Shown here one piece after another: positions 10,050-47,380 of a stretch of 64,000 nucleotides of DNA. The position numbers and the translations under genes are program-made. The notes under the pieces are model-generated. The model was not told the DNA's origin, ran no database searches, and worked only from the letters and a program-made list of their open reading frames with translations. Every line of letters begins with the position of its first letter. Position 1 is the stretch's first letter. The DNA comes from a virus, in the IMG/VR virus record IMGVR_UViG_3300032053_000013, positions 32,001 through 96,000 of that record; one strand, written 5' to 3'.

Positions 10050-10052
10050 CAG

Positions 10053-10550
10053 GTGGCCGACAACATCGCCCCCCCTACGAGGCAGCTGAAGCCCCTTGGA
10101 GGGGAGACGGGGCAGGAAGACCCGAGGTTCGGCTTCAGGTACAGCTTCAACGTGCTCACGAGGCCGATCCGGGGGCAGTTCTCGAAGGTGAGTGGGCTCA
10201 GCGAGGAGATCGAGGTCGTGGAGATGCGGGACGGGACCGACCCGTTCCAGGTCAGGAAGATCGCTGGGACGAACCAGGGGGGCCAGATCACGCTGGAGAG
10301 GGGGATCGTTTCCCAGAGGGACCACCTCATCCGGTGGTTCGGGGACGTGAAGAAGAAGAGCGGACAGTACTGGGCGGACGTGACCGTGGGGGTTTGGGGG
10401 CGGCCGGAGGACAAGGATACGGTCATGGACGTGAAGATCAGGTCCGGGTGGCCCAGCAGGTACGAGATCGGCGACCTTGACGCGAAGTCCTCGGAGATAG
10501 CCGTGGAGGTTCTCACGGTCGTCCACGAGGGTCTCGAATACGTGAGGTGA
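10053..10550 (+). CDS. Tail tube protein 1 (T4 gp19-like)
   Basis: FSKVSGLSEEIEVVEMRDG...ITLERGI...WP...LDAKSSEIAVE. Confidence 0.9.
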   Translation: MADNIAPPTRQLKPLGGETGQEDPRFGFRYSFNVLTRPIRGQFSKVSGLSEEIEVVEMRDGTDPFQVRKIAGTNQGGQITLERGIVSQRDHLIRWFGDVKKKSGQYWADVTVGVWGRPEDKDTVMDVKIRSGWPSRYEIGDLDAKSSEIAVEVLTVVHEGLEYVR

Positions 10551-10553
10551 GCA

Positions 10554-11018
10554 ATGGCAGAGACAAGGCTTTCCGACCCCGTCGCCAACTTCCGCTTCAT
10601 CGTGGTCTCGACGCGGTGCCGGGCGGGGTTCTCGAAGGTCACGGGGATGAAGGAGGAGAGCGAGGTCATCGAGTACCGCGAGGGGACGGACAGCGCGTTC
10701 CTCCAGAAGTACCCCGGGATGCGCAAGTACCCGGAGGCGACGTTCGAGCGCGGGCTGACGCAGGAGGCGATGGCCCTCGTCGAGTGGCGGAACGCCGTCA
10801 TCAGGGGGAAGAACTACAAGGACCGCATCCAGGTCGACATCCAGACGTGCCCGGGGACCATGGCCAGGTCCGTCGTCTTCCCGAAGTCGTGGCCGAGCGG
10901 TCTGGAGATCTCGGACATGGACGCGAAGGCGAGCGAGATCGCCATCGAGACCATGACGATCCAGCACGAGGGCAACGAGGACCTGGCGGTCATCCCGACG
11001 ATCTTCAAGAACGTGTAG
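10554..11018 (+). CDS. Tail tube protein 2 (T4 gp19-like)
   Basis: DPVANFRF...GFSKVTGM.EESEVIEYREG...TFERG...WP...MDAKASEIAIE. Confidence 0.9.
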   Translation: MAETRLSDPVANFRFIVVSTRCRAGFSKVTGMKEESEVIEYREGTDSAFLQKYPGMRKYPEATFERGLTQEAMALVEWRNAVIRGKNYKDRIQVDIQTCPGTMARSVVFPKSWPSGLEISDMDAKASEIAIETMTIQHEGNEDLAVIPTIFKNV

Positions 11019-11063
11019 CCTCCCGCCGAGTGGGTCGGCGGGTGAGAACGTGTTTACGGGGCG

Positions 11064-11876
11064 GTGCCCCAGGAGGAAACCATGCCGGAGGACAACCCCA
11101 CCACGCCCGCGCCGGACGCCCCTCCCGTCAACGGCATCGTGGTCAGCCTGCCATGCGGGTACCTCAGGGACGGCCGGGTCCACCGCGAGGCGGAGATCGT
11201 CCCGATGACCGGGCTGACGAGGAAGGCCATCGCGAGGGAGGACGTCAGGAACAACCCCATCAAGGTCACGGACGTCATCCTCTCCCACTGCCTCAAGCGC
11301 GTCGGGGACGCCACCTCGATCACCTCCCGGCTCCTCGGAGACCTCGTCATCGGAGACCGCGACTTCCTGATCCTGGAGATCAGGCGCGTCTCGATGGGCG
11401 AGGCGATCGTCGCGAACGTCGAGTGCGACTCCTGCAAGGCGAAGGTCGAGGTGACGTTCCACATCAAGGAGATCGAGACCATACGGCTGGGGGACCCGAA
11501 GGACTACCCGGAGCGGGACGGCAGCCTCACGTTCGCCGTGAGGGGCGACGGGTTCGAGGCCGTGAGCCGGTTCCCGAAGGGGGCCGACCAGGCCCTCATC
11601 ATGCCGGGGGCGACCAAGAACCCCGTGGCGGCGAGCTACGGGCTGTACGCGGCGTGCCTCCTGGAGTGGAACGGGAAGAGGGGGCCCTTCGACACCGCCT
11701 TCTTCGAGTCGCTCCCGCTCTCCGTCCTCGACGTGTTCGAGGAGGAGTTCATGGCGCTCCAGCCGGGCCCGGTCATGAAGCAGGACGCCTCCTGCCCCTC
11801 GTGCGGGGCGTCCATCGACTTCACGTTCAGAGGGTCGGATTTTTTGTTCCGGGTCCCGAAGCGTGGGAGGCTGTGA
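11064..11876 (+). CDS. Tail assembly chaperone (G-like)
   Basis: VSLPCGY, GDRDFLILEIRRVSMG and CxxC motifs; lies between tube and tape measure genes. Confidence 0.75.
   Translation: MPQEETMPEDNPTTPAPDAPPVNGIVVSLPCGYLRDGRVHREAEIVPMTGLTRKAIAREDVRNNPIKVTDVILSHCLKRVGDATSITSRLLGDLVIGDRDFLILEIRRVSMGEAIVANVECDSCKAKVEVTFHIKEIETIRLGDPKDYPERDGSLTFAVRGDGFEAVSRFPKGADQALIMPGATKNPVAASYGLYAACLLEWNGKRGPFDTAFFESLPLSVLDVFEEEFMALQPGPVMKQDASCPSCGASIDFTFRGSDFLFRVPKRGRL
11840..11846 (+). other. Programmed -1 frameshift slippery site T TTT TTG
   Basis: X XXY YYZ heptamer in frame at the end of the chaperone gene; the -1 frame stays open to 12037. Confidence 0.75.
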
Positions 11877-18216: not shown

Positions 18217-18596
18217 CGATTGTGCTCGTAGAGGCGGTCGTTGAGATCTGCGCCGAGGGGGAGATTTTCGAGCCCCTCAGAGCATGGCTCGCCGGGAGGG
18301 GAGATAAGCCCCGCAAGATCGGTGTGTTCGTGCGTTGCCCCTACTGCATGTCGGTTTGGATGGCAGTCGGAGCGGCCTACCTGCTCCAGGTCATGGGGGT
18401 CTTCGGGTGGATGGGGTGGTTCGAGCCGGTCCTGTGGGGATTTTTGATCCACCGGGCGTCGAATCTGTGGCACGAGGTCGTGTCGAGGCATCTGGGGCGG
18501 GTGCCTTTCACCCTCTTCATGCGGACCTGGAGGCACGAGGAGGTCGAGGCGAAGCCGGAGGAGAGGAAGGGGGATGGTGGAGCCGCTACAGGGTAA
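18186..18596 (+). CDS. DUF1360-like membrane protein (holin-like candidate)
   Basis: IFEPLRAWL...CPYCMSVW followed by TM segments. Confidence 0.7.
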   Translation: MEDVLWKLPIAIVLVEAVVEICAEGEIFEPLRAWLAGRGDKPRKIGVFVRCPYCMSVWMAVGAAYLLQVMGVFGWMGWFEPVLWGFLIHRASNLWHEVVSRHLGRVPFTLFMRTWRHEEVEAKPEERKGDGGAATG

Positions 18597-19725
18597 CTCG
18601 ATGCCGTTCTCCGAGCGGCGATATTACGGATGCTACCGTGGCACGGTCGCGGACAACCTCGACCCCCTGCGCCTCGGGCGGGTGAAGTGCAGGTGCCACG
18701 AGGTCCTGGGGCTGGAGATGACGACGGACTGGGCGGCCTACAAGGGGGGGCCGTTCGGGGGCGACCTGGACTGCGGGGTCTTCGCCCCGCCGGACGTCGG
18801 CGCGGCGGTGTTCGTCGAGTTCGAGAGCGGGGACGTGAACCGGCCCCTCTTCACGGGTACCTGGTGGGGGCAGAGGAAGGGGATGCCGCCGGAGACCCCG
18901 GCCCTGGCGAGGGCCGACGGGCAGACGTGCTGGAAGACAGACCCGAGCACCTCGGCCCCGAAGGGAATCGACCAGTTCAGGAGCGCGACCAACGAGGACC
19001 AATGCCAGCCCATCTCGCCCCTGCGGGCGAAGGGGCCGCCGCAGTACCCGTGCAACAAGGTCCTCAAGACGAAGAACAACGGGATCACGGTCGAGATCGA
19101 CGACACGCCGGGGAGGGGCAGGATCCACATCTGGCACGGCCCGTCGAAGTCGTGGGTCGAGATCGACTCCGGGGGCGAGCTCTCGGTCAGGGTGGCCGGG
19201 AAGTCCTACGTCCTCGTGGAGGCGGACGACCGGCACCACGTGAAGGGGGGTCGCCACGCCCTGGTCGAGGGGGACGAGACGGTCCGCGTCGGGAAGGACC
19301 GGTGGCTGAGGGTCAAGGCGAACGAGACGCGGGAGGTCGGGGGCCTGCGTGACACGTTCGTCACGGGCAAGGAGCAGAGGGTGAACCAGGCGGGGCTCGA
19401 CGGGTTCGTCGTGGGGGAGGAGCAGAGGGTGGACCAGGGGGGGCTGAAGCACTGGACCATCGGGGACCGGGTGGACGTCGTGGTCGGGAACTGGACGCAG
19501 TGGGTCGTCGGGAACCTCCAGACCAACGTGTTCGGGAACTACGACCGCATCGCGGCGGGCAACATCAGCGACGTCGCCAGCGCGATCGCCCACTCGAAGG
19601 GGACCCCGACGGGGGCGCCTCCGGTCCCGCCGGTCCAGCCCCAGCCCCCGCAGCCGGTCCAGCCCCCGGGGTGCCCGGTCACCCCGCCCGACTTCACGTG
19701 CCCCCCGACGCCCCCGGCCCCGTAG
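18574..19725 (+). CDS. Baseplate spike (gp5/gpV/VgrG C-terminal-like)
   Basis: YRGTVADNLDPLRLGRVK, PDVGAAVFVEFESGDVNRP (OB fold), EIDDTPG..RIHIWH, V.G.E repeats, Pro-rich tail. Confidence 0.92.
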   Translation: MVEPLQGNSMPFSERRYYGCYRGTVADNLDPLRLGRVKCRCHEVLGLEMTTDWAAYKGGPFGGDLDCGVFAPPDVGAAVFVEFESGDVNRPLFTGTWWGQRKGMPPETPALARADGQTCWKTDPSTSAPKGIDQFRSATNEDQCQPISPLRAKGPPQYPCNKVLKTKNNGITVEIDDTPGRGRIHIWHGPSKSWVEIDSGGELSVRVAGKSYVLVEADDRHHVKGGRHALVEGDETVRVGKDRWLRVKANETREVGGLRDTFVTGKEQRVNQAGLDGFVVGEEQRVDQGGLKHWTIGDRVDVVVGNWTQWVVGNLQTNVFGNYDRIAAGNISDVASAIAHSKGTPTGAPPVPPVQPQPPQPVQPPGCPVTPPDFTCPPTPPAP

Positions 19726-21395: not shown

Positions 21396-23162
21396 TTGAC
21401 CACGATCAGCAAGGTCACGAACAGGATCCCCCCGATCGACTACACCTCCCGCGACTTCGAGGCGATCGCGCAGGACATGGTGCGGGCGATCCCGTTCATG
21501 GCCCCGGAGTGGACGGACAACAACCTCTCCGACTTCGGGATCGTCCTCCAGAGGCTCGTGGCCATGGTGTCCGACTGCCTCCACTTCTACCTGGACCGCA
21601 CGGCGAACGAGGCGTTCCTGCCCACGGCGATCACGAGGAGGAGCGTCATCAACCTCCTCCAGCTCATCAACTTCACCCTGAACAGCGCGGCCCCGGCCTC
21701 GGTGGACGTCCGGTTCCACATGGCGAACGCGCTCCCCGGCGACCTCCTGATCCCGAAGGGGACGGAGAGCCAGACCACGGCGGACGCGACGGACGGCCCG
21801 ATCTACTTCGAGACGTCGGCGGACGCGGTGATCCCCGCCGGGGACCTGGAGGTGACGGCGCCCGCGGTGGAGGGCCGGACCAGGACGGAGACCCTCGGGG
21901 TGAGCCTCGGGATCGCCCGCCAGAGGTTCGATGTCTCCGGGTCGCCCGTCATCGACGGGAGCCTCGCCATCGCGATCGACGAGGGGGTCGGGCCGGAGGC
22001 GTGGTCCGAGGTGGAGTCGTTCGCCTACGCCGGGCCGGACGACAAGGTGTTCACGACCATCCGGGACGAGAACGACAAGATCACGGTCCTGTTCGGGGAC
22101 AACGCCCAGGGGAAGATCCCGGACAACGGGGCGATCATCGAGTCCGAGTACCGGGTGGGAGGGGGGCTGCGGGGGAACGTGCCGGAGGGGACGATCGTCA
22201 CGGTGAACGACGTGCCCACCTACAACGCGGTGCCGGTCAGCCTGGCGGTCACGAACGACCTGGCCGCGAGCGGCGGCGAGGACGCCATGACCATCGAGGA
22301 GGCGAAGGTCCTCGGGCCCCAGAGCCTCCTGGCCCTCAACAGGGCGGTGACGGCCCTCGACTTCAAGACGCTGGCGGAGGCCTTTCCCGGCGTCGCCAGG
22401 GCGTCCGTCGTGGTCGGGGCCTACCCCGTGGACGTGTCGACGGGGTGCTGCTGCCTCGTCAGGCTCATCATCGCCCCCACCGGAGGGGGGACGCCGTCGT
22501 CCCAGCTCAAGTCCGACCTCGCGGACTACCTCGAGGCCCGGAAGATGATAGGGACGTGCCTGGAGATCGTGGACCCGACCTACCAGCCGGTGGACGGGGC
22601 CGGTACGATCTACATGGCCGGGAACTTCTCCACGGAGCAGGGGGCGCAGGACGTGGAGGACTCCCTCTCCGCCTTCTTCGACCTGGGGAGCGAGTACGTC
22701 GGGTTCGGGCAGTCCCTCTACCTGTCCGACTTCTACCACCTCCTGGAGTCCATCTCCGGGGTGGACCACGTCGACCTGACGGAGCTGACCCGGAGGCCGG
22801 TGCCCGTATGCTCGCCATGGACGTCGGACTGCGGGCTGACGAACTTCGTGGTCGGGCCCTCCGCCAAGAACGAGGGGTGGACGGTGACCGCGACCTCCCC
22901 GACGACCTTCTCCGTGGTGGGGTCGGTCAGCGGGCCCCAGAACCCCGGGACGGTAGGGGTGGGCTACACGACCAACGGCGGGGAGGTGTCGTTCAAGATG
23001 GAGTGCACGAGCGGGACCCTGGTGGTGGGCGAGAAGTGCCAGTTCACTACCAGCCCGAAGGTCGCCAACGTGCCGATGAAGCCGCTGGAGGTCATGACCA
23101 AGGGCGTCTTCACGTTCAGCTTCGTCGGAGGGGCCAGGCCCCAGAGGGTGTGCCCGGTATGA
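21396..23162 (+). CDS. Baseplate J-like (gp6) protein
   Basis: IDYTSRDFEAI, PEWTDNNLSDFG, FGDNAQGKIP, GGEDAMTIEEAK, RAVTALDF. Confidence 0.92.
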   Translation: MTTISKVTNRIPPIDYTSRDFEAIAQDMVRAIPFMAPEWTDNNLSDFGIVLQRLVAMVSDCLHFYLDRTANEAFLPTAITRRSVINLLQLINFTLNSAAPASVDVRFHMANALPGDLLIPKGTESQTTADATDGPIYFETSADAVIPAGDLEVTAPAVEGRTRTETLGVSLGIARQRFDVSGSPVIDGSLAIAIDEGVGPEAWSEVESFAYAGPDDKVFTTIRDENDKITVLFGDNAQGKIPDNGAIIESEYRVGGGLRGNVPEGTIVTVNDVPTYNAVPVSLAVTNDLAASGGEDAMTIEEAKVLGPQSLLALNRAVTALDFKTLAEAFPGVARASVVVGAYPVDVSTGCCCLVRLIIAPTGGGTPSSQLKSDLADYLEARKMIGTCLEIVDPTYQPVDGAGTIYMAGNFSTEQGAQDVEDSLSAFFDLGSEYVGFGQSLYLSDFYHLLESISGVDHVDLTELTRRPVPVCSPWTSDCGLTNFVVGPSAKNEGWTVTATSPTTFSVVGSVSGPQNPGTVGVGYTTNGGEVSFKMECTSGTLVVGEKCQFTTSPKVANVPMKPLEVMTKGVFTFSFVGGARPQRVCPV

Positions 23163-23377
23163 GCGACACGCGGAGGATCTCCGAGATCGAGGCCAGGATG
23201 ATGGCGTCGGAGCGGCTCGGGTGGAGGGTCCACACCGTCGAGGAGAGCGCCAGGAGGATCTCGGCGGAGATCCCGAACTTCGTCGACGAGGCGGACCTGC
23301 AGAAGTTCACGAGGTACCTCGACGAGATCGTCAAGGCCGTCCAGGACGCCTTCATGAAGGAGACGGGGGCGAAGTGA
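23159..23377 (+). CDS. Small helical hypothetical protein
   Basis: MSDTRRISEIEARMM..., 72 aa, ATGA overlaps at both ends. Confidence 0.6.
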   Translation: MSDTRRISEIEARMMASERLGWRVHTVEESARRISAEIPNFVDEADLQKFTRYLDEIVKAVQDAFMKETGAK

Positions 23378-24573
23378 CCAGCCCTTCGGTGATAATCAGC
23401 GACCCCAGGCTCGTCCAGGGAGTCACGATCCGCAGGGGCCTGGAGGGCCCGCAGATCGTCGTGGAGTGGGAGGCCCCGGAGGCGCCCCCGCTCGGGGGGA
23501 TCGTCCGCGTCCTGAGGAAGACGTACGAGTTCGCCAGCGACGCCTACGACACGGCGGCGGTGAACGTCTACGAGGGGGACGTGGGGGCCGGGCACGTGTC
23601 CGACCTCGACCTGGACCCCTGCTCCTGCTACTACTACACGGTCTTCACCTTCGACCCCCTCACCTACGAGTGGGTCTACTCCGTCGGGACCCAGGCGAGC
23701 CTGCTCGCCATCGAGAGCGGGTACTTCACGGACCGCCTCTTCGGGCTCCTGCCGGAGGTGTACGTCCTCGGGGACAAGCTCATGGGCGAGGTGGACGCGT
23801 CGAGCGCGGTGGTCCCCCTGCACCCGGAGTTCGACGCGGGGTCGAACGAGTGGTTCAACATCCACGAGAACCCGACGGACCCGGCGACGGGGGATCTCCT
23901 GGCGGAGGAGAGGAAGAGGGGGCCGCTCAGCCGGTTCCTGAAGAACATCGCGATCGAGCTCGACATCGTCAAGGGCCTGATCGACTGCATGCCCACCCTG
24001 TGGGACGTGGACGAGGCGTGCTGCTCGGCCCTCCCGGCGCTGGGGGAGCTGGTCGGGCTCGACGTGAACCGGGAGTTCCCCTGCAACAAGCAGCGGGAGG
24101 AGATCCGCCAGCAGGCCGCGATCCTCAAGATCAAGGGCACGATCCAGGCGGTGGCGGCCCGGGCGCGGCTGGTCTCCGGCCTGCGGGTGGGCGTCCACGA
24201 GTGGTGCAAGAACATCCTGATCTCCAACCGGCTGGACCGGACGAGCGTCTACATCCCCAACCCGGGCCTGGCCCTGAAGTACAAGCGGTGCGGGGACGAC
24301 ACGGACTTCACCCCCGGCCAGGGGATCACGTTCCAGTCGTTCCTGGTGTGCTTCTACCTGGAGTGCGACGACTGCCTCTCGGAGCAGGTGGTCGAGAAGC
24401 TGGCCCGGGTGATGCCGCCGGAGTGGCCGGTCTGCCGGAGCGGCTATTTCCTCTTCGAGGACTGCCGCCACCAGGAGGTCTACCCGGGCCCGATCGACAA
24501 CTGGTGGGACGTGGTCGAGACGGGCGGGAGCAGGATCAACCAGGCGCGGATCAACCTCGGACGCGTAACGTAG
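23374..24573 (+). CDS. Baseplate wedge/tail protein I (P2 gpI-like) with N-terminal Fn3-like domain
   Basis: RLFGLLPEVY...LWDVD...LPALGELVG...KIKGTIQAV; GTG start at 23374. Confidence 0.75.
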   Translation: MTSPSVIISDPRLVQGVTIRRGLEGPQIVVEWEAPEAPPLGGIVRVLRKTYEFASDAYDTAAVNVYEGDVGAGHVSDLDLDPCSCYYYTVFTFDPLTYEWVYSVGTQASLLAIESGYFTDRLFGLLPEVYVLGDKLMGEVDASSAVVPLHPEFDAGSNEWFNIHENPTDPATGDLLAEERKRGPLSRFLKNIAIELDIVKGLIDCMPTLWDVDEACCSALPALGELVGLDVNREFPCNKQREEIRQQAAILKIKGTIQAVAARARLVSGLRVGVHEWCKNILISNRLDRTSVYIPNPGLALKYKRCGDDTDFTPGQGITFQSFLVCFYLECDDCLSEQVVEKLARVMPPEWPVCRSGYFLFEDCRHQEVYPGPIDNWWDVVETGGSRINQARINLGRVT

Positions 24574-24585
24574 CCGGAGGAGAGC

Positions 24586-25638
24586 ATGTCGTACAACGCC
24601 TCGTGGGACGAATGGACCAACCTCGCCCTGCTCCTCGACGAGAGGGTCTCCGGGTTCCTCCGCCGGGAGAAGAACTTCGTCATGGACGGGTTCCAGCTGT
24701 CCACGGGGTTCGGGCTCTTCGCCCAGGTGGGGCAGGTGGGCCTCAACGTCGCCTACTGCAACGGGTACGAGCTGAAGCAGACCTACCCCATCGCGCCGCC
24801 GCTGGTCCCCGTCGCGCCAGCCACGCTGGGCCAGCCGGTCTACCTGGAGTTCACGAAGACCGTGGACCCGGGCGGCGGGTACCTGTCCATCGCGATCTTC
24901 CTCACGGTCGGGCCCCCGGCCACCCCGTCCGACTGGATCAAGCTCGGGGAGGTGGACACGGACGCGGTGGGGGTCATCGCGGTCAGGAACGAGGACAACC
25001 GGTACCACCTCCACTCGGCCCAGATGGACGACGTCCTGGAGGGCAACCTCCAGCACATCAGCCGCCTGACCCTCCAGCGCGGGGCGGCCTTCCCGGTGGC
25101 CCCGGCCCCCGTCCAGTCGGAGCTGTTCTGGAGGACGGACCTCCTCCAGCTCTACGTGTACGACGGGGGGATCTGGCAGCCTCTGACGCCGGGGGCTCCC
25201 CCGGGTGCGGTGATCTTCACGGCGAACCCCCTCGGCCCCCCGATCCTGCCGGGGGAGGTGGCGTACGTGGGTCCGAACCCCCCGGCGGCGCCGGGGACGG
25301 TGACCCAGGCCATCGCGCTCGCCATGGCGACGGCGGAGGTGGTCGGGGCGGCCATGGGGCCGGTCCTCCCCGGCCTCCCCGGCCCGTTCATGACGTGGCA
25401 CGGGACGACGGGGACGGCGTACTACGAGATCGCGGCCCCGCCGGTCGTCCCCCCGGTCCCCGGGAGGAAGGTGTGGCTCTCCAAGATCACGCCGGGGGCG
25501 GTGACCACGCTGGCCCCCGCGAACCCGTGCGCCAGGAAGGTCTTGGGGGTGATCACGGACAACTCCGTGTTCGCCTGGCCGGGCAACCCCTACCTCACGG
25601 TCGTGTGGGCGCCCGAGCCGACGATCTGGGTGCCGTAG
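24586..25638 (+). CDS. Tail-fibre-associated structural protein
   Basis: 350 aa; LFWRTDLLQLYVYDGGIW motif typical of fibre proteins; Pro-rich. Confidence 0.55.
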   Translation: MSYNASWDEWTNLALLLDERVSGFLRREKNFVMDGFQLSTGFGLFAQVGQVGLNVAYCNGYELKQTYPIAPPLVPVAPATLGQPVYLEFTKTVDPGGGYLSIAIFLTVGPPATPSDWIKLGEVDTDAVGVIAVRNEDNRYHLHSAQMDDVLEGNLQHISRLTLQRGAAFPVAPAPVQSELFWRTDLLQLYVYDGGIWQPLTPGAPPGAVIFTANPLGPPILPGEVAYVGPNPPAAPGTVTQAIALAMATAEVVGAAMGPVLPGLPGPFMTWHGTTGTAYYEIAAPPVVPPVPGRKVWLSKITPGAVTTLAPANPCARKVLGVITDNSVFAWPGNPYLTVVWAPEPTIWVP

Positions 25639-32522: not shown

Positions 32523-33004
32523 TGATGAATAGATACCTTGTTGTCTACGACACCACGACGGGGGAGATCCTGCGGGCCAGCCCCAGGCCGAACACGTTCA
32601 CGACCGTCGTCTCGGGGAACGGAACCCTGGACGGCGACTCCCTCGTCGGGACGGACTTCTCCGGGGTCGCCACGGGGGATATGGTGGTCATGCAGACAGC
32701 GATCAGAGAAGTCCGCTGCGGCGTGGCCGAGGTCGTCTCGGGAACCGAGCTGCGGCTCGGACGGGTCTTCCAGGACCAGGACGCAGGCAGCGTATCTTTC
32801 ACGGTCAAGCGAGTGGGAGATCCGGTGTCAGCTACGAACGAGGAGAAGGCCACGGCCATCAATGATGTAAAGGCCGAGGTCGGTCACCAGAACGTGGACG
32901 CCATGAAGGTGAAGACGAGGCAGAGCATCTCGGCTAATAGCCATCATGTTGATCTTGGCGATGGGAATAAGGTGAAGAAGGTCGAAGAAGTGGCATACGA
33001 GTAG
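32522..33004 (+). CDS. Small fibre chaperone-like protein
   Basis: YLVVYDTTTGEIL N-terminus; translationally coupled to the spike gene. Confidence 0.5.
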   Translation: MMNRYLVVYDTTTGEILRASPRPNTFTTVVSGNGTLDGDSLVGTDFSGVATGDMVVMQTAIREVRCGVAEVVSGTELRLGRVFQDQDAGSVSFTVKRVGDPVSATNEEKATAINDVKAEVGHQNVDAMKVKTRQSISANSHHVDLGDGNKVKKVEEVAYE

Positions 33005-33009
33005 GGAAG

Positions 33010-33627
33010 ATGGAAGATCCGAATTCCAAGCCGAAGTCCGTCGAGGAGCGGACTGCCGAGATCCTCATGGGGCCTCCGAAGGAGGTCTACGACGCCGCCA
33101 AGAACGTGAAGGGGCGGTGGAGGGACATCGTCACCCGCAAGCGGCCCGACGGCACGGAGGAGGTGGTCGAGGAGACGCCCTGGAGCAGCAACATGATCGT
33201 CCAGGGGATGTCGGTCGCCCTCGCCGCCCTGATGAAGGGCGACCCGAACTTCGCCGGGGGGATCAGGTACCACGCGGTCGGGCGCGGGCTCGCGGCGTGG
33301 GACCCCCTCCCGACGCCCCCGACGCCGCTGGCCTCCGACGTCTCCCTGGTGGACGAGTACTTCAGGAAGGCGCCGACCGCCATCTCCTATCTGGACCCTC
33401 TGGGCGTCCCGGTGCCGGGGCCCACGAAGTCCATCCTGGTGCAGACGGTCCTCGACTACACCGAGGCGAACGGGATGGCCGGGGAGTACATCCGGGAGCA
33501 GGGGATCTTCTGCGGGCAGGCGACGGCGGTCCTGAACTCAGGGACCATGGTGAACCTGATATACCACGTCGCGAAGTGGAAGAACAACAAGGTCAAGATC
33601 ACCAGGTACATCAACTTCATCTTCTGA
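33010..33627 (+). CDS. Tail-collar/fibre attachment-like protein
   Basis: NMIV.G, YHAVGRG, LVDEYFRK, DYTEANG..IREQGIF pattern. Confidence 0.55.
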   Translation: MEDPNSKPKSVEERTAEILMGPPKEVYDAAKNVKGRWRDIVTRKRPDGTEEVVEETPWSSNMIVQGMSVALAALMKGDPNFAGGIRYHAVGRGLAAWDPLPTPPTPLASDVSLVDEYFRKAPTAISYLDPLGVPVPGPTKSILVQTVLDYTEANGMAGEYIREQGIFCGQATAVLNSGTMVNLIYHVAKWKNNKVKITRYINFIF

Positions 33628-33630
33628 TTG

Positions 33631-33647
33631 GCGCACACGGTGTGCGC
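33631..33647. promoter_or_regulatory. Palindrome variant GCGCACA-CGG-TGTGCGC
   Basis: Intergenic; symmetric substitutions relative to the 14740 site. Confidence 0.55.
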
Positions 33648-33666
33648 GTGAGGGGCGGAGGTTCCG

Positions 33667-36231
33667 ATGGGAGCGAGCACGGCGATCATCACGAGACGCA
33701 TGTTCTCGGAGGTGAAACGCTACGTCCAGACCGTCCTGCAAGCCGGGGTCCCCCTGGTCGACGCGGACTACAACGACCAGATGGACTCCAACTTCACCCA
33801 GCTCCGCAGGATCATCCAGTCCTGCCTGGGGGACGGGGCGCTCGGCGACGCCTTCCTGGTCAGCCAGAACCTCCCGAACCTGGTGAACGAGTTCCTGATC
33901 AACGGCGGGGACACGCTCGCCTCGGTCGCCCTCACGGTGAAGGCCGACAAGACGGTGGTCCTCCCGCAGCCCGGCCCGGAGGGGATGTTCAACAAGGGCC
34001 ACCACGCGCAGCTCTGGGCGGACGAGACGTTCATGTCCGGCGGCCAGACGGCCCCGGTCTCCACCTCCCTCATCCAGACGGTCCTCCCGAGCGACACGCT
34101 CGTGGACACGGCGGCGAACTTCACCCCCGGAGCGCTGGTGGGCAGGGTCCTGACGCCGGACCTGGCGGTGCCAGCGAACGCATACGCGGTCGTCGCCAAC
34201 GGGGCGAACACGATCCAGGTGGGCGTCTCGATGGTTGCGGCGGCCGGGGCGCAGTACCGGGTCGGCCTGACCACGCCCGGCGCGGCCAGGAAGGACCTGG
34301 TCTACCTCGACTGCTACCTCGACGAGACCAACTCGACGGAGGACGCGGACCTCAAGCACACGATCGACTCGATGACGATCGAGGCGATGCTGCGCTGGAA
34401 GCTGGTCCAGACGGTGAAGGTGGAGGAGGGGGTTGCCCTCCCCTACGCCATGCCCTCCGGGTGGACGGACACGGACGGGAACCCTCACGTGGTCGTGCCC
34501 CTGGCCCTGATCGAGCGCCCGGCGGGGAACCCGACCGTCACGGACGCGATGATAACGGACCTCCGCAGGAAGCTCTTCCGGCTGGACGAGATCGACGACC
34601 GCTTCGTGAACGTGACCGGGGACACCATGACGGGCGTCCTGGCCATGCAGGCGAACATCACGGTGGCCCTCGGGAGGAAGGTGCTGGGGACCTGCATCAT
34701 CGACGCCAACGCCCTCTGCGAGGACACGGTCGCCCAGAGGCACATGAAGCGGAGCTCCCACCTCCTCGACGCGGTGGACAACGTCCCGACGTGGAGCGAG
34801 GTGAACGACCCGGCGGACCCGAACCACTTCAAGGTCCACGACAACCGGTACTACACCAAGTCCATCCTCGACGCCATGCTCGGGGCGAACCTGATCTCCA
34901 ACGGGATGTTCATGGACGGGCTGGACGGGTGGGAGAACCTCGCGCCCCTGCCCCTCTACGGGTACCCGCAGCTGGAGGCGTCGAGGGCGATCGTGGCCAT
35001 GAGCCTGTGCGGGGCGACCTGCGAGGGCGGGTTCTGCTCCTGCCGGTCCCTCCAGCTCTACGTGCCGCCGTCGAACCGGGCGTGCGTGATCTGCGTCACG
35101 AGGCAGGAGGTGTGCGGGGGGATCACCTGCGGCGGGGAGTTCCTCCTCATCATGACCCTCTGCGTGACCAAGGGCGAGGAGGCGGTGATCCCCTTCCTGG
35201 TGTTCGACCTCTACTCCTCCTGCCAGTACGTGGGGACGAAGAGGTACGCGATGTGGGAGCCCGGGCTGGACGACCCGGAGAAGCCGGGGATCACGGTGCA
35301 GGACGGCTTCATCAGGATGGAGAAGAAGGTCGAGTGGCCGAAGTGCATCGACAACGCGGTGGTGACGGTGTGCTTTGAGATCGTCCCGCTCCACGAGCTC
35401 CCGCCCGTCCCGCCCGAGCCGCCAGCCTGCGACGTGTGCCGCCAGGGGCCCCAGATCACGGAGGGGACGGGGGCGCTGTGGGCCTGCATCGAGAGCCCGG
35501 TGCAGATCACCCCGTTCGCGATGTGCCGGTACTTCCCGGCCCCCGTCCCGGTGGTGGACGCCGTCTCCTTCGACGTGCAGTCCAACCGCCCGGGGGCCCT
35601 GCTCCGCACGATGCTGATGGACTCGGAAGGGAAGAGGGCGTACCACGACGACGTCCCGACCGGGGGCGTCGACTCCTTCCTCGTCACGGCGGCCAGCTTC
35701 CAGATCCCGGACGGGTCCTTCAACTGGCAGAGCGTCGTCTCGTGGTGCCTGTACTGGGGGGACCCCCAGCCGTACGACGAGTACGTCACGGACAACTGGA
35801 AGATCGACAACCAGTTGCTCAGAGACCGGATTGACATCCCGAACGTGGGGAGCTGGGACGACCTCGAGTACCTGTTCCTGAACCAGCTCGCCGGGTGCGG
35901 CTACCAGGCCGAGCCCGACGCCCCCCGTGGTATCATGGCCCCGGAGGGGTCGAGGCAGGCGAGGCAGCCGGAGCCCGACCCGAACCCCCTGTCCCCGGCG
36001 TGCGAGGTTGGGCCGGAGGCCTTCGAGGTCTCGGTCTGCGCGGTGCAGATGCGCCGGATCAGCGGGCCGGAGGGCGAGATCGACCCCGGCATCGGGTGCA
36101 AGACGAACAAGATCCCTGTCATCACCACGGTCGAGTTGGATGGGACGGTGAACTTCACGACCGCCCATAACCAGGTGGCGACCGTGGTGGAGGTCCTCGA
36201 AGAGGAGTGCTCAGAGCCTCCCCCGCAGTGA
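33667..36231 (+). CDS. DUF6519-like tail protein with Cys-rich CBM-like C-terminal domains
   Basis: FSEVKRY..TVLQAGVPLVDADYNDQ N-terminus resembles DUF6519; FVNVTGDTMTG fibre motif. Confidence 0.7.
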   Translation: MGASTAIITRRMFSEVKRYVQTVLQAGVPLVDADYNDQMDSNFTQLRRIIQSCLGDGALGDAFLVSQNLPNLVNEFLINGGDTLASVALTVKADKTVVLPQPGPEGMFNKGHHAQLWADETFMSGGQTAPVSTSLIQTVLPSDTLVDTAANFTPGALVGRVLTPDLAVPANAYAVVANGANTIQVGVSMVAAAGAQYRVGLTTPGAARKDLVYLDCYLDETNSTEDADLKHTIDSMTIEAMLRWKLVQTVKVEEGVALPYAMPSGWTDTDGNPHVVVPLALIERPAGNPTVTDAMITDLRRKLFRLDEIDDRFVNVTGDTMTGVLAMQANITVALGRKVLGTCIIDANALCEDTVAQRHMKRSSHLLDAVDNVPTWSEVNDPADPNHFKVHDNRYYTKSILDAMLGANLISNGMFMDGLDGWENLAPLPLYGYPQLEASRAIVAMSLCGATCEGGFCSCRSLQLYVPPSNRACVICVTRQEVCGGITCGGEFLLIMTLCVTKGEEAVIPFLVFDLYSSCQYVGTKRYAMWEPGLDDPEKPGITVQDGFIRMEKKVEWPKCIDNAVVTVCFEIVPLHELPPVPPEPPACDVCRQGPQITEGTGALWACIESPVQITPFAMCRYFPAPVPVVDAVSFDVQSNRPGALLRTMLMDSEGKRAYHDDVPTGGVDSFLVTAASFQIPDGSFNWQSVVSWCLYWGDPQPYDEYVTDNWKIDNQLLRDRIDIPNVGSWDDLEYLFLNQLAGCGYQAEPDAPRGIMAPEGSRQARQPEPDPNPLSPACEVGPEAFEVSVCAVQMRRISGPEGEIDPGIGCKTNKIPVITTVELDGTVNFTTAHNQVATVVEVLEEECSEPPPQ

Positions 36232-42392: not shown

Positions 42393-42632
42393 ATGCCCAT
42401 TCCCATCATCACCGAGGACATCTCGTTCCAGCACATCTCCAGCCCGCTGGGCAACCCCGGCTCGCCGTTCGACAAGGCGCTGTGCAACCGGGACTACATC
42501 GTCTCGGCGTACATCAAGAAGATCAACCCGAGCTACCCGAAGATCAGCCTCGCGGACGAGGTCATGGCCCAGTGCAAGGCCGTGTTCCCCGGCTTCGGCG
42601 ACTTCGGGCCTGGCGGCGGCCCCCTGGCGTAG
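42393..42632 (+). CDS. Small hypothetical protein in its own transcription unit
   Basis: 79 aa, SD AGGAGG, promoter upstream and terminator downstream. Confidence 0.7.
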   Translation: MPIPIITEDISFQHISSPLGNPGSPFDKALCNRDYIVSAYIKKINPSYPKISLADEVMAQCKAVFPGFGDFGPGGGPLA

Positions 42633-42663: not shown

Positions 42664-42692
42664 GTGGGCGGAGGATGGTCTCCGCCCATTTT
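42664..42692 (+). terminator. Probable terminator
   Basis: TGGGCGGAGG-ATGG-TCTCCGCCCA followed by TTTT. Confidence 0.55.
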
Positions 42693-42708
42693 CCTATGGG
42701 GATGGGCC

Positions 42709-43641
42709 ATGAAACGCGCACTTTTGGTCGGCATCAATAGGTATCCAGGTGCCCCCTTACGCGGGGCGCTGAACGACGTCGAGGACTGGCACGGGGTCCT
42801 CGCGGCGCGAGGGGGGTACTCCCCGGACAACATCAGGGCGGTGTGCGACGAGCGGGCCACGACGCAGGGCATACGGGACCGCATGGCGTGGCTCAGGGAG
42901 GGGCTGAAGGGGCCCGGCGACGAGGTCTTCTTCGCCTTCTCGGGACACGGCTCCCAGGTCCGCGACAGGGGCGTCCTCGACGAGCTCGCGGACAACCTGG
43001 ACGAGATCCTCGTGCCCGTGGACATCGACTGGAACACCAGGGTCATCACGGACGACGACGTCGGGGACTGGCTCAAGACCTTCCCGGCGGGGGCCAAGAT
43101 CACGGTGGTCTTGGATTGCTGCAACAGCGGATCCGGGACCAGGGGGCTCAGGCCCCCCCAGGAGAACCCGCACTACAAGGCAGACCGATACCTCCCGCCG
43201 CCCCTGGACATCGCCCTCAGGGCCGGTGGGCTCGCCACGCGGAGGGGCGTGGAGGTCGGCGTCAGGATAGGGTGCGGGCACGGGAAGAGGAACGGCTGGA
43301 GGGAGGCCAAGGCGAACGGCAAGAAGAAGAGCCTGTTCTGGTGGAGGAATCCGAGCCCGAGGCCCAAGCCCGCCCCGATTTCCACCCCTGCCCCGGCGCT
43401 GAGCCACGTCCTCATCTCCGGCTGCCGGAGCGACCAGACCAGCGCGGACGCGCTCATCAACGGGAGGTACAACGGAGCCCTGTCGCGCTTCCTCATCGAC
43501 GCGGTCAGGATGTCCCCGAAGGGGACGCCGATGGCGGCCGTCCAGGCCGAGGCGAGGAAGGCGATCATCCTGGCCGGGTACACCCAGGAGTCGCAGATCG
43601 AGGGGCCGGAGTTCCTGCTCAAGGCCCCGTTCTTCATGTAG
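42709..43641 (+). CDS. Caspase-family (C14, metacaspase-like) cysteine protease
   Basis: KRALLVGINRY, LRGALNDV, FAFSGHGSQ (His), VLDCCNSG (Cys), ISGCRSDQTSADA, YNGALS. Confidence 0.92.
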   Translation: MKRALLVGINRYPGAPLRGALNDVEDWHGVLAARGGYSPDNIRAVCDERATTQGIRDRMAWLREGLKGPGDEVFFAFSGHGSQVRDRGVLDELADNLDEILVPVDIDWNTRVITDDDVGDWLKTFPAGAKITVVLDCCNSGSGTRGLRPPQENPHYKADRYLPPPLDIALRAGGLATRRGVEVGVRIGCGHGKRNGWREAKANGKKKSLFWWRNPSPRPKPAPISTPAPALSHVLISGCRSDQTSADALINGRYNGALSRFLIDAVRMSPKGTPMAAVQAEARKAIILAGYTQESQIEGPEFLLKAPFFM

Positions 43642-43650
43642 GAGGCGCAC

Positions 43651-44517
43651 ATGACGGTTCCGTACTTCACCCCCGAGGACAAGAGCATCTACGGCACGTT
43701 CGCCGATGAGTACCAGAGGCTCCTCGACAACATCGCGAGCGGCTTCGCCAACGTGGGGTCCGAGGAGAAGATGATGGACGCTGGCGGGGCCGGGGTGGGC
43801 TACGTCCACTTCCTTTCGCAGCCCGACGCCGAGGACGCCATCATGATCGACGGGCAGATCTACCGCTACTTCCAGGGGTCGCCCCCGAGGCCCCCGCGCC
43901 CGCCGTGGCGTCCGCCGTGGAGGCCGATACCCCGCCCCCGCGAGCCCTTCCTCCCGAGGGAGATCCTCCCGAGGGAGATCCCGTCCGGCGAGTTCGACGT
44001 GGGGATCATCATCGGGAACGACGTCGAGCAGACCATCGACCGCACCGCCGCCGCGATCGAGGGCAACATCTACACGGGCGTCCGGGGCATCCGGGCGGTC
44101 AACGGGGCCGGGCCGGTCCTCCTCCTGGCGGCCAGGTGGGCGGGGGCCGACTCCAACTTCCCGATCGAGGAGAGCACGGGCGGTGTCCGCATGGTGGTGG
44201 GCGAGGGCGAGGCGCGGAGCGCCGCGACCCCCCGCCAGAGGAAGGTCGTGACCTGCAACTACGCCATGAACGGGCGCGACATCGCGGCCCTGGCGGCGCC
44301 GTGCGAGATACCGATCATGTGCTGCATCGCCAGCACCTCCCCGCAGTTCGGGGGGGCGATCCTTTTGCGGGGGATGGGCCTCAACGTGGTCCCCTTCACG
44401 ACGGACGTCGGCTTCGGCGTCCGGCAGATCGGGGACGAGCTCTGGATCATCACGATTCACGACCTGGGCGGGGTCATCCAGGAAGGCGACGCCATGCTCG
44501 TGACCGCGTGGACGTAA
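43651..44517 (+). CDS. Hypothetical virion-associated protein with Pro/Arg-rich insert
   Basis: 288 aa; N-terminal YFTPEDKSIYG motif shared with 44551 and 45089. Confidence 0.6.
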   Translation: MTVPYFTPEDKSIYGTFADEYQRLLDNIASGFANVGSEEKMMDAGGAGVGYVHFLSQPDAEDAIMIDGQIYRYFQGSPPRPPRPPWRPPWRPIPRPREPFLPREILPREIPSGEFDVGIIIGNDVEQTIDRTAAAIEGNIYTGVRGIRAVNGAGPVLLLAARWAGADSNFPIEESTGGVRMVVGEGEARSAATPRQRKVVTCNYAMNGRDIAALAAPCEIPIMCCIASTSPQFGGAILLRGMGLNVVPFTTDVGFGVRQIGDELWIITIHDLGGVIQEGDAMLVTAWT

Positions 44518-44550
44518 CCCGCCGAAGGCGGAGAGAAGAAGGAGGACAAG

Positions 44551-44991
44551 ATGGGAGCCTACGTAAGACCTGACAAGGCGATCCGGGAGAACATCATCGT
44601 CAAGATGGAGGAGGACCGCGACGCGATCCAGGCCGCCTTCTCCTCCAGCCTCGTCGAGACCTCGGTGGACTTCATCAACGACGCCCCCCCGGTGGGCGGC
44701 GACGTGCGGATCAGGATGGCGCTGGGCACGATGACACCCGTGTCGGGGTTCTGCTGCTGCATGCCGGGGACCGGACCCGGGGCGACCATGGACATCAAGA
44801 TCGGCACCCCCGGAGGCCCCTCGATCCTGACGGCCCCGGCCCCGATCGCCTCGACCCCCGGCGTCCCGGTGCCGCTGTCGTTCGTCCCCGGAGTGTCGAT
44901 CCCGGCGGGCACCCCGATCTGCTACGTCCTGACGGACATCGGCGCGCCGGTGATCTTCCCGACGGCGAACGTGCAGTGGCTCGTGAGCTGA
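44551..44991 (+). CDS. Hypothetical beta-rich protein
   Basis: 146 aa; N-terminal PDKAIRENII motif; jelly-roll-like C-terminus. Confidence 0.6.
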   Translation: MGAYVRPDKAIRENIIVKMEEDRDAIQAAFSSSLVETSVDFINDAPPVGGDVRIRMALGTMTPVSGFCCCMPGTGPGATMDIKIGTPGGPSILTAPAPIASTPGVPVPLSFVPGVSIPAGTPICYVLTDIGAPVIFPTANVQWLVS

Positions 44992-45088
44992 CGCATTCGA
45001 TGCCGTAGCAGGATTCCCAAAGGAACCAGCCAGCGGGTCGCGGGAGCCGGAATATAAGCCCGGCCCCTGAATTAGGGGGAGAAGACCA

Positions 45089-46600
45089 ATGAGAAGGCAG
45101 ACTTATTACACCCCAGGGGATAAATCTATATATGGGAACATCATTGACGAACTGGAAAGTGAGCGCGGCAGACTTGAGGCCGGATTTCAGACTGTCTTCT
45201 CCTCCGTAGAGCAGCTGATTCCTTCAGAGAACCTGAATTTTTACATCGACCCAACCAACGGGAATGACGCAACCGCCGATGGAGCGATAATCACCCCGTT
45301 TAAGACCTGGAAGGCTTTTTGGGAATCGAACGTCCTCCCGAAGGCCACAAGGAAATCCATCAACGTCAAGATCTTTCCAGGTGTTCTCGACTGGGTGTAC
45401 CTGTCGGGGATAAACGTCTACCAACCCGGATCCCTCAACATCTATGCGGACATGAAGCCTGCCGTCATCACGGGAATGAACCAAGGGACGGCTTCCGGTG
45501 GAACGACATACTCCCTCCAGAAAGCGGGAGCCGGGTGGGCACCAAACCAACTTGCCGGGAAGTCGTGGCGGATCACGGCTGGAACTCACATGTGGTACAG
45601 CGGGAAGATCGTTACCAACACGGCAACGGAGTTCTTCATCGCCCCTTTGATGGGGACGCCTATCGACGCCACGGACGTGTTCATCATCGAGGAATCAACG
45701 GTTCTGGTGAACCCCCCCCTGATGTATAACCATCCCAATCCCTTGACGGTGTACGATAGCAGAGGAAACATCAACATCCAAAACCTGGACTTCCAGGCCA
45801 ACGAGCACCGCTACCAGTATTACGCGGGAAGAATAACCAGGAGTGGCGACGGAATCATCTTCTTTAACTGCATGTTCAGGGGATCGAGTCCGGCGTCTCT
45901 CGCAGCATTGAAAGATCCTCTGTGGACATCTCGGGCACACGACTCGACGTTTTTTCTTTGCTCGTTCATCTCTCAGGAAGGAGTTACGACGGAGTCCATC
46001 ATTCAACACGACGGACCCACCAGTAAGATGGATTACTACGGATGCGCCTTTAACGATTGCATCCATGTCTACTACGGCATGGACCACCTCTCCATACAGA
46101 ACTGCCACCGCATACAGCGGGCAGGGAGCACAGGGAGCGACGTCCTCCGGACGGTCAACTACTTCCAGCCCATCAACAGTAGGATCGACTTCAATCTAAC
46201 CGGGGCGGGCATACGATTCGATGGCCCGTCCTGCATGGACGCCCGCTACACGCAATTCCTTCGGTCCAGCGGAAAGGGTCTGTGGACATACGGCTACTAC
46301 GGCGATGGTGTCCGCCTGTCTTTCATTGGGGGAGAAGTAGGGGGTTGCGTCGGGGATGGGATTGATGTGGGACCATGCTCTTCCGTGGCCATGGTTTCTC
46401 TTCTCACGAACCCAGCCGCCATCAACGGCGGGTGGGGGCTCAAACTCCGAAATGGAGCGAAGGCCGCATACGCCGGAGTCAGCTCTCTCAAGGGGGCATT
46501 GGGGGATGTGAACCTTGGAGACGGGGTAACCAATGTCCCGATAAATACGACAGCGACCGACACGACGCACCTAACTCGGATAGCGCCTTTCGGAGGGTAG
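45089..46600 (+). CDS. Tailspike/depolymerase-like beta-helix protein
   Basis: FYIDPTNGNDATADG...PFKTW, INVKIFPG, beta-helix repeats; markedly lower GC. Confidence 0.7.
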   Translation: MRRQTYYTPGDKSIYGNIIDELESERGRLEAGFQTVFSSVEQLIPSENLNFYIDPTNGNDATADGAIITPFKTWKAFWESNVLPKATRKSINVKIFPGVLDWVYLSGINVYQPGSLNIYADMKPAVITGMNQGTASGGTTYSLQKAGAGWAPNQLAGKSWRITAGTHMWYSGKIVTNTATEFFIAPLMGTPIDATDVFIIEESTVLVNPPLMYNHPNPLTVYDSRGNINIQNLDFQANEHRYQYYAGRITRSGDGIIFFNCMFRGSSPASLAALKDPLWTSRAHDSTFFLCSFISQEGVTTESIIQHDGPTSKMDYYGCAFNDCIHVYYGMDHLSIQNCHRIQRAGSTGSDVLRTVNYFQPINSRIDFNLTGAGIRFDGPSCMDARYTQFLRSSGKGLWTYGYYGDGVRLSFIGGEVGGCVGDGIDVGPCSSVAMVSLLTNPAAINGGWGLKLRNGAKAAYAGVSSLKGALGDVNLGDGVTNVPINTTATDTTHLTRIAPFGG

Positions 46601-46604
46601 GACT

Positions 46605-46832
46605 GTGATCATTGAAGATCAAGTGAAGACGTTGCTGCTGGCGGCGGAGAAAGCCGATCTGGCGGACAGGGATTCCTTGCTTTTTGGGGGTTTCTACCGG
46701 GAGCCGAATTCTTTCATGGAACGTCAAGTTAGAGTAAGGCTCTACGGAATTATCAGGGAGAACCATCTCGCGGAGGATGCACTTGATTCTTTGTGGGATC
46801 TACTCGGGCTGGAAAGACATCCTCCTGAATAA
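46605..46832 (+). CDS. Small hypothetical protein (low GC)
   Basis: 75 aa, coupled to the 45089 gene, same composition. Confidence 0.5.
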   Translation: MIIEDQVKTLLLAAEKADLADRDSLLFGGFYREPNSFMERQVRVRLYGIIRENHLAEDALDSLWDLLGLERHPPE

Positions 46833-46874
46833 GGGGATTTCAATAGGAACCTCGGTCCCTCTTTCTTTCCTGAT

Positions 46875-46908
46875 CCGCCGGGGGTTCGCGCCTCCGGCGG
46901 GTTTTTTT
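46875..46908 (+). terminator. Strong intrinsic terminator ending the late region
   Basis: CCGCCGGGGG-TTCGCG-CCTCCGGCGG followed by GTTTTTTT. Confidence 0.9.
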
Positions 46909-46919
46909 CGCCCAGGCTG

Positions 46920-46947
46920 TTGACGACTTGGGGAAAAGGGGTATAAT
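46920..46947 (+). promoter_or_regulatory. Early-type promoter TTGACG-N16-TATAAT (1)
   Basis: Read directly from sequence. Confidence 0.85.
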
Positions 46948-47352: not shown

Positions 47353-47380
47353 TTGACGAAAGCAGGAAAGCCCGTATAAT
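47353..47380 (+). promoter_or_regulatory. Early-type promoter TTGACG-N16-TATAAT (2)
   Basis: TTGACGAAAGCAGGAAAGCCCGTATAAT. Confidence 0.85.

Follow-up and report, generated by a model that had tools for sequence, protein, structure and literature searches.

A shared N-terminal module on three adjacent proteins of an environmental phage is probably an attachment peptide for exchangeable receptor-binding proteins

In this study, we report that three consecutive genes in IMG/VR virus record IMGVR_UViG_3300032053_000013 encode proteins that begin with the same module of about 37 residues. The proteins are referred to here as A (43651-44517), B (44551-44991) and C (45089-46600). The record is 122,285 bp long and is estimated to be 82% complete; the window analysed, to which all positions refer unless stated otherwise, comprises its bases 32001-96000 (64 kb). 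By the statistics of sequence comparison the module is real, solidly supported and previously uncatalogued, and we consider it probable that it serves as a trimerising attachment peptide for exchangeable receptor-binding proteins (RBPs). In what follows, contigs and loci of other phages carry labels beginning with L, and individual proteins labels beginning with P.

The three proteins are the products of plus-strand open reading frames (ORFs) starting at 43651, 44551 and 45089, each preceded by a Shine-Dalgarno-like purine run, and their guanine-plus-cytosine (GC) content at third codon positions (GC3: A 0.96, B 0.94, C 0.68) is the signature of real genes. The original prediction that three consecutive proteins carry a common N-terminal motif, followed in each by an unrelated remainder, was confirmed. 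Whole-protein BLASTP placed the similarity between A and C (E=4e-6) and between B and C (E=2e-4; residues 4-32 against 7-35) at the N-termini, and found nothing in common among the three bodies beyond the module. The direct comparison of A with B gave no significant match, which is the point in favour of a chance or compositional resemblance between three unrelated N-termini. That explanation has been refuted by the profile results and retains a negligible probability. In a leave-one-family-out test, a hidden Markov model (HMM) built from nothing but the 38 N-terminal columns of an alignment of nine A orthologues was run against 611 ORFs from the window and two related loci, and matched C (4.7e-12), a 252-aa (amino acid) protein of a relative (5.7e-8) and B (1.6e-5), in each case at residue 1, while the next unrelated ORF reached only E=3. 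The similarity across families is therefore significant (E 1e-5 to 1e-12) and separated from noise by a clean gap. Among 1.84 billion representative proteins a profile of the module matched 20 at E<=1e-3, and in 18 of these the match began at residue 1-3; the module is also kept across contigs of 37-70% GC. The whole 122-kb record holds exactly three copies, whose codons have diverged at the DNA level; selection has therefore acted on the peptide, rather than the copies having arisen by recent duplication. Recent gene conversion among the three copies was also considered, and was rejected because of the same divergence.

The consensus of 32 aligned instances is M-x(2-4)-[FY]-Y-x-[RP]-G-D-[KR]-x-[IV]-x-x-x-[IFL]-I-[DE]-E-[LFM]-E-x-[ED]-R-x-x-[LI]-x-x-[AG]-F-[QE]-x-V, with hydrophobic residues at module positions 14, 18, 21, 28, 32 and 35 and a conserved Arg at position 25. 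This pattern, of the 3-4 heptad type, reads as a predicted three-heptad amphipathic helix that ends in A-F-Q-x-V and is preceded by a short aromatic / G-D-[KR] cap, and AlphaFold2 (AF2) likewise predicts a helix in the module of both A and B. As delimited by HMM and BLAST, the module occupies residues 1-37 of A (43651-43761, + strand), residues 1-35 of B (44551-44655, + strand; predicted helix at residues 7-29) and residues 1-38 of C (45089-45202, + strand), where it lies outside the beta-helix fold and is written in low-GC codons like the rest of C.

A helix of this kind might act only as a generic coiled-coil neck, trimerising the chain or forming a shaft repeat while attachment is made through another surface or protein, in which case the conservation of the module would reflect folding and not a common socket. 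The heptad pattern with its polar core Arg would suit such a role, as would the three tandem module copies in the L015 proteins and the alignment of B's helix with the helix that precedes the fibre knob of phage 7-7-1. We nevertheless regard it as unlikely, given that 31 of the 33 tallied carriers have the start of the module at Met1 or a few residues from it (exceptions are P0026, in which it runs from residue 32, and the repeats inside the L015 proteins) and that the conserved aromatic / G-D-[KR] cap ahead of the helix has no coiled-coil role. B, moreover, is little more than module and knob, which leaves the module as the sole candidate surface for its attachment.

Proteins matched by the module profile are 85-503 aa long and all metagenomic. 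No family in Pfam, PHROGs or NCBIfam, searched with A, B and C, covers the module, the module profile gave only noise against PDB sequences (E>=0.24), and tblastn of A, of C and of the first 45 residues of C found nothing genuine in 50,697 sequenced phages. The suggestion that the arrangement may be undescribed thus holds for the sequence family, which is absent from all of these collections, and not for the principle of docking peptides, which has been published (PMC6872550). A degenerate form of the module pattern had no match in IMG/VR and found 10 loci in JGI metagenomes. Four of these are true (L020, L026, L027 and L029, the last being the L012 contig), and the other six are false, namely five retrotransposon-like ORFs and one spurious frame. 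L013, a weak partial match from the pattern and profile scans of IMG/VR, was rejected, as only 13 residues align.

The bodies that follow the module are diverse. Beta-helices stand behind it in C, in L014 (10506-) and in L027, K1-lyase_C domains in P0026 and P0027, and DUF2793 domains in P0029 and P0021, which match PHROG 'tail fiber protein' entries and carry a GDDDHxQY motif. P0034 and its neighbour (both in L015) have Laminin_G_3 bodies, each with three tandem copies of the module, and the body of A and the jelly roll of B complete the list. Bodies of a recognised receptor-binding or depolymerase type are accordingly found in C, P0026/27, P0029, P0034, L014 and L027, and the N-terminus is conserved among such proteins and among relatives while the remainder diverges or is swapped. 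In the 37%-GC contig L015 (2213-4355) the two Laminin_G_3 proteins adjoin each other directly after a ClpP-type head-maturation protease, and their tandem modules are the weakest matches of all (E about 1e-3 in the global search). In L011, a 136-kb contig of 51% GC, a protein composed of module and K1-lyase_C forms a two-gene plus-strand unit (10001-11086) with a trypsin-like protein bearing a signal peptide; the unit is surrounded by minus-strand accessory genes (Acb5, BubE, ADP-ribosyltransferases).

Protein C (503 aa, 45089-46600, + strand) is the clearest case of an exchanged body. Its GC content is 0.55, compared with about 0.68 in its neighbours, and the codons of its module are low in GC as well. 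No Pfam match was obtained by sequence, and C does match phrog_4577 'tail protein'. Where the beta-helix begins, C has weak profile matches to the tail spike of Milano (8fqc) and to the tail fibre of phage 7-7-1 (9rkv). Its ESM Atlas model (predicted template modelling score 0.78) resembles the Beta_helix, DUF1565 and Pel9A clusters over residues about 40-500, with template modelling scores of 0.57-0.62; as modelled, C is a right-handed parallel beta-helix from about residue 40, tailspike-like, in agreement with the original prediction of a low-GC beta-helix. C body homologues in other phages (P0002-P0005) lack the module and have unrelated N-termini. The gene that follows C (46605-46832, + strand; 75 aa, GC 0.50) is homologous (E=2e-9) to a 79-aa gene that follows P0005, the C homologue of the unrelated contig L004; body and partner therefore travel as a cassette, in which the 75-aa protein is a possible assembly helper. 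Together the two genes form a low-GC island (44980-46852, strand not assigned). DNA homology between the window and L006 ends at the stop codon of B (44979) and resumes at 46853, and the cassette exactly replaces the lipoprotein gene of the relatives. That lipoprotein-like gene, which encodes a signal peptide and a Cys, follows B at 12460-13008 in L006, 2106-2645 in L008, 1546-2100 in L010 and ~3814-4390 in L027.

In protein A (288 aa, 43651-44517, + strand) the module is followed by a small segment that is conserved, then by a linker rich in Pro and Arg, and at the C-terminus by a domain with no assigned fold; searches of Pfam, PHROG, NCBIfam and PDB gave no match. In comparison with its nearest orthologues its body is 83-90% identical and its module only 31-36%, and the module resembles that of distant orthologues rather than that of the nearest ones. 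The module of A has therefore been exchanged independently of the body. Taken with the C bodies that occur without a module, this swap indicates that recombination has taken place on both sides of the junction between module and body. The linker of A (PPRPPRPPWRPPW..., window 43882-43983, residues ~78-111) is missing from P0015 and P0016, orthologues of 45% identity whose genes still adjoin a C14 peptidase gene (described below); it behaves as an optional element.

The same site in relatives is occupied by variable sets of carriers. Relatives down to 45% identity share an order in which a giant protein and two small genes precede C14, A and B, and lipoprotein, SWIM, MoxR AAA and VWA/DUF2201 genes come after them. 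Across relatives, one to three module genes occupy the site, usually two or three side by side. L006 has an additional module-bearing 252-aa protein and a 104-aa gene between A and B; the bodies found at the same genomic site elsewhere are the beta-helices of L014 and L027 and the DUF2793 protein of L020. In more distant phages (L012, L014/L026, the P0029 contig/L020 and L027) the slot is kept directly upstream of the SWIM-MoxR-VWA block and contains one or two module genes, either a B-like gene with another or a single gene. Where the upstream sequence of these phages was examined, A and C14 are absent and glycosyltransferase clusters lie upstream. These clusters, of glycosyltransferase, epimerase and methyltransferase genes (L012 2548-9079; L014 2410-9577; also in the P0029 contig), stand where the window has giant fibre-like proteins. 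Other bodies at the same site, C homologues without the module and the swapped module of A together bear out the proposal of a common N-terminal handle on interchangeable payloads.

Protein B (146 aa, 44551-44991, + strand) combines the module helix with a jelly-roll knob, and its AF2 model (predicted local distance difference test score 82) shows a helix and a jelly roll. The B family is small, with only 18 members among 5.8 billion clusters. The best structural match is the C-terminal helix and jelly roll of the phage 7-7-1 long tail fibre (Z 9.4), and matches to generic jelly rolls, carbohydrate-binding modules and capsid cement proteins (Z 8.4-8.8) are effectively tied with it. On the predicted model, therefore, the fold searches identify a generic jelly roll and cannot tell whether it is a capsid cement protein or a fibre knob. 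This raises the alternative that the module fixes small trimeric cement or head-fibre proteins to the capsid, A, B and C being alternative head decorations. The size and jelly roll of B do match the trimeric cement proteins of KHP40, Pam1 and GP4 (Z 7.9-8.5), the Laminin_G_3 carriers of L015 lie beside a head-maturation protease and match a PHROG labelled 'head and packaging', and an auxiliary capsid protein of crAss is among the Atlas leads for A, at only 0.80, a score often reached by chance. Since A, B and C follow the baseplate and fibre genes and lie ~40 kb further downstream than the capsid gene, since beta-helix, K1-lyase_C and DUF2793 bodies are typical of tail spikes and fibres, and since the fold matches do not discriminate (Z differences <1), we hold capsid decoration to be a rather improbable account of the module.

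The position of the three genes points to the tail. To judge from its gene content the phage is contractile-tailed, and A, B and C appear to be the last genes of its tail/baseplate (virion) operon, because an intrinsic terminator (46872-46903, + strand; a 14-bp stem followed by a T run, kept in L006) and the promoter at 46920 close the block behind them. We favour an attachment peptide for RBPs because the genes lie where the tail module ends, because of the kinds of payload and the varying number and kind of carriers, because of the cassette with its helper-like gene, and because the module is strictly N-terminal and coiled-coil-like; the precedent of short N-terminal docking peptides in Klebsiella phages and in K1E/K1-5/SP6 is a further ground. 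The module would be an N-terminal attachment and oligomerisation unit, consisting of a cap and then a helix that probably forms a trimeric coiled coil. Several small exchangeable RBPs would plug by means of it into the same kind of socket, either on the baseplate or on one large fibre protein encoded upstream. A, B and C would then be side fibres or spikes of one virion, with a distal domain of no assigned fold in A, a jelly-roll knob in B and a beta-helix in C. New specificities could be acquired by two routes, namely the recombination of a foreign body behind the module and the import of a ready-made cassette of module and body with its small helper gene. The structure comparisons, made on predicted models, agree with this proposal but do not prove it.

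Several observations weigh against the attachment-peptide proposal. Capsid cement proteins (Z 8.4-8.5) fit the jelly roll of B nearly as well as fibre knobs do (Z 9.4), and no fold can be assigned to A, whose AF2 model is poor (score 43). The placement of A, B and C on the tail of the virion is a prediction from gene content and position. Pfam, PHROG and PDB sequence searches of the upstream large proteins revealed no socket, such as a T4 gp10-like branching domain, and no docking partner emerged when the upstream proteins of 350, 738, 854 and 1166 aa were compared with PDB sequences. The module genes of the window lie in the tail/baseplate module, whereas the single module gene of L011 lies among accessory and anti-defence-type genes outside a tail cluster, and the two of L015 come after the ClpP-type head-maturation protease. 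Finally, three tandem modules, as in L015, look more like a shaft repeat than like a unique docking peptide.

The gene directly before A encodes a metacaspase-like peptidase C14 (42664-43641, + strand). Its match to Pfam PF00656 is strong (E=1.3e-21; 77.8 bits against a cut-off of 21.4), the His/Cys dyad is present in the translation as SGHG and DCCNSG, and an NCBIfam caspase match lies below the cut-off. The C14 gene is found directly upstream of A in every A-containing relative, with a gap of 9 nt in the window, and the orthologues of A (45-84% identical) always directly follow it. It adjoins module genes only where A is present, namely in the window, L006/L007, two Logan contigs and L009, and the pair spans 42664-44517 in the window, 9036-10864 in L006 and 5274-6998 in L009. 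Both genes are missing in L012 and L014, where a gene of the 79-aa type is followed directly by a B-like gene. On this gene order, C14 and A appear to have been gained or lost together, as a strictly co-inherited pair, between the conserved 79-aa gene and B, and the C14 protease might have A as its substrate, partner or regulator. A literature search turned up no C14 protease with a role in a virion gene block of a phage.

The original prediction had joined the metacaspase and the proteins behind it into a unit of protease and tagged cargo. In such a scheme a dedicated phage protease, here C14, would read or remove the module, which would serve it as a signal for recognition or loading or as a pro-peptide, and one enzyme would process or load differently tagged cargos. 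The co-inheritance of C14 and A speaks for it, as does the near-invariant D-[KR] of the module, metacaspases being known generally to cleave after basic residues. Other proteases also flank module genes in two unrelated contigs: in L011 the only module gene is followed by one for a trypsin-like protein (PHROG 'protease' 5.7e-7, with a Pfam match under the cut-off), and in L015 the ClpP-type enzyme precedes the two Laminin_G_3 carriers. Furthermore, no canonical ClpP or S78 prohead protease was found in the 82%-complete record; the corresponding S77 search was uninformative, since its control also had no match.

Tag and protease are not obligatory companions, however. Within <=10 kb on each side of the module genes, C14 is absent from five contigs (L011, L012, L014, L015 and the P0029 contig), and in L012, L014 and the P0029 contig, which are the closest outgroups and keep the same slot, no protease family of any class was detected over that distance. 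L020 and L027 offered too little upstream sequence for this comparison. The D-[KR] is just as conserved in the phages without C14, no conserved junction or cleavage motif follows the module across carriers (32 aligned instances), and for these reasons protease and tagged cargo as a general model is not supported by the sequence comparisons. C14 travels with A and is no neighbour of the module in general. The proteases that flank module genes represent three classes with no relation to one another, on different sides of these genes, and the ClpP-type case involves the weakest module matches. The payloads are extracellular carbohydrate-type domains and not head-internal cargo, and the usual slot for a protease or scaffold, between portal and capsid, is already filled by a gene for a 581-aa protein. 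We therefore give little credence to the module as a signal for a dedicated protease. A conserved EHxVDF after the module of B was considered as a caspase-type site and rejected, as it is the first jelly-roll strand and is equally conserved in phages without C14. The original prediction had itself named a spike anchor without a link to the protease as the outcome that would tell against it, and this is essentially what emerged, with the caveat of the conserved C14-A pair.

The conserved pair, together with the recurrence of three protease classes beside module genes, is the basis for a bolder form of the same idea, in which the module, as a portable address tag, would couple virion proteins that are otherwise unrelated to a phage protease for their maturation or activation. 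C14 would act on A in this phage, and trypsin-like or ClpP-like enzymes would act elsewhere. Both the tag and this division of labour seem to us doubtful; if true, they would imply a caspase-dependent step in the assembly or arming of phage surface appendages.

The window has a GC content of ~67%, and by the GC3 signature practically all of its genuine genes lie on the plus strand. PHROG and Pfam matches identify a portal directly upstream of the window, a head protein (2525-3925), tail sheath (8061-10049), tape measure (12041-14740), baseplate hub (18574-19725) and wedge (gp6/J-like) protein (21396-23162), and a family match a P2 gpI-like protein (23221-24573). The 581-aa protein (717-2462; 32717-34462 of the whole record) lies between portal and head protein. 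It has no family or PDB match, and is composed of an N-terminal third, a Pro/Thr/Ala-rich stretch and a helical part; it may be a divergent protease-scaffold fusion. The P2 gpI-like gene is followed by a gene for a 350-aa protein (24586-25638) and by ~20 kb of giant proteins (1166, 738, 854 and 1943 aa), none with a family match, and then by two small genes, Peptidase_C14, A, B and C. One of the small genes (42393-42632, + strand) encodes a 79-aa protein with a Gly-rich C-terminus that is found upstream of the module genes throughout the wider phage family. It matches no family, and homologues read in translations are 75 aa (L009), 88 aa (L012), 83 aa (L014) and 94 aa (L020) long, with the conserved C-terminal pattern ...FPG.G.FG.GGGPL. 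It is a candidate adaptor. Downstream of the virion operon, the near-consensus promoter (46920-46947, + strand; 11/12 matches) begins the next unit, of SWIM, MoxR and VWA genes. It has the same format as a second promoter at 47353-47380 (TTGACG, 16-nt spacer, TATAAT), and the two start the SWIM and MoxR genes.

If the module is an attachment peptide, a plug of 37 residues marks the host-range determinants in an uncharted clade of environmental phages of roughly 120-150 kb, and its consensus can be used for annotating RBPs in metagenomes where Pfam and PHROGs are blind. The locus also shows recombination junctions at single-gene resolution, in the gene replaced by a cassette, in the exchange of a module, and in bodies that occur both with the plug and without it. 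The co-inherited pair of metacaspase and A is the one item possibly beyond the ordinary.

Among known systems, the scheme of protease and tagged cargo recalls the capsid-targeting sequences of phage T4, which are short N-terminal tags on head-internal proteins, cut by a herpesvirus-type prohead protease. The two cases share a short N-terminal tag common to otherwise unrelated proteins and a protease gene nearby. The tagged genes of T4, however, lie in or near the head module, whereas those described here end the tail module and have surface-type payloads, and the protease here is a C14 enzyme that is missing near the module genes of several relatives.

A closer structural parallel is offered by the trimeric fibres of Agrobacterium phage 7-7-1 (gp015, 9rkv) and of Milano (gp124, 8fqc), in which an anchor is followed by a beta-helix and a jelly roll; the long tail fibre of 7-7-1 ends in a triple jelly roll (PMC12796354). 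The start of the beta-helix of C falls on residues 178-230 of these proteins, in a weak profile match, and the helix and jelly roll of B align with the C-terminal knob of gp015 (residues 453-582). In 7-7-1 these domains are united in one chain of 587 aa with an anchor of 120 residues, whereas here they are separate proteins, each with its own module of 37 residues, and the N-termini of A, B and C have no sequence similarity to those of 7-7-1 and Milano.

The nearest precedent in design is found in Klebsiella phages. Latka et al. 2019 (PMC6872550) proposed N-terminal peptides of 7-29 aa as docking elements of secondary RBPs in KP32-, KP34-, Menlow- and PhiK64-1-like phages, and conserved docking peptides have also been reported for K1E/K1-5/SP6 (PMC6872550). 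As in those phages, a short N-terminus (about 37 aa here) is conserved among several RBPs of one phage and its relatives, the remainder is swapped horizontally, sometimes with a chaperone, several RBPs would be present per virion, and beta-helix bodies are common. The peptides differ in that there is no sequence similarity between them, and in that one module is common to all two or three proteins here, compared with one specific peptide per branch in the Klebsiella phages. The present system also differs in that no T4 gp10-like anchor protein was found and some payloads are very small (146 aa). Modular RBPs with conserved N-terminal docking peptides are textbook phage biology, and no new principle is involved; most probably, the module of A, B and C represents the familiar design of one anchor with swappable receptor-binding heads in a new sequence family.

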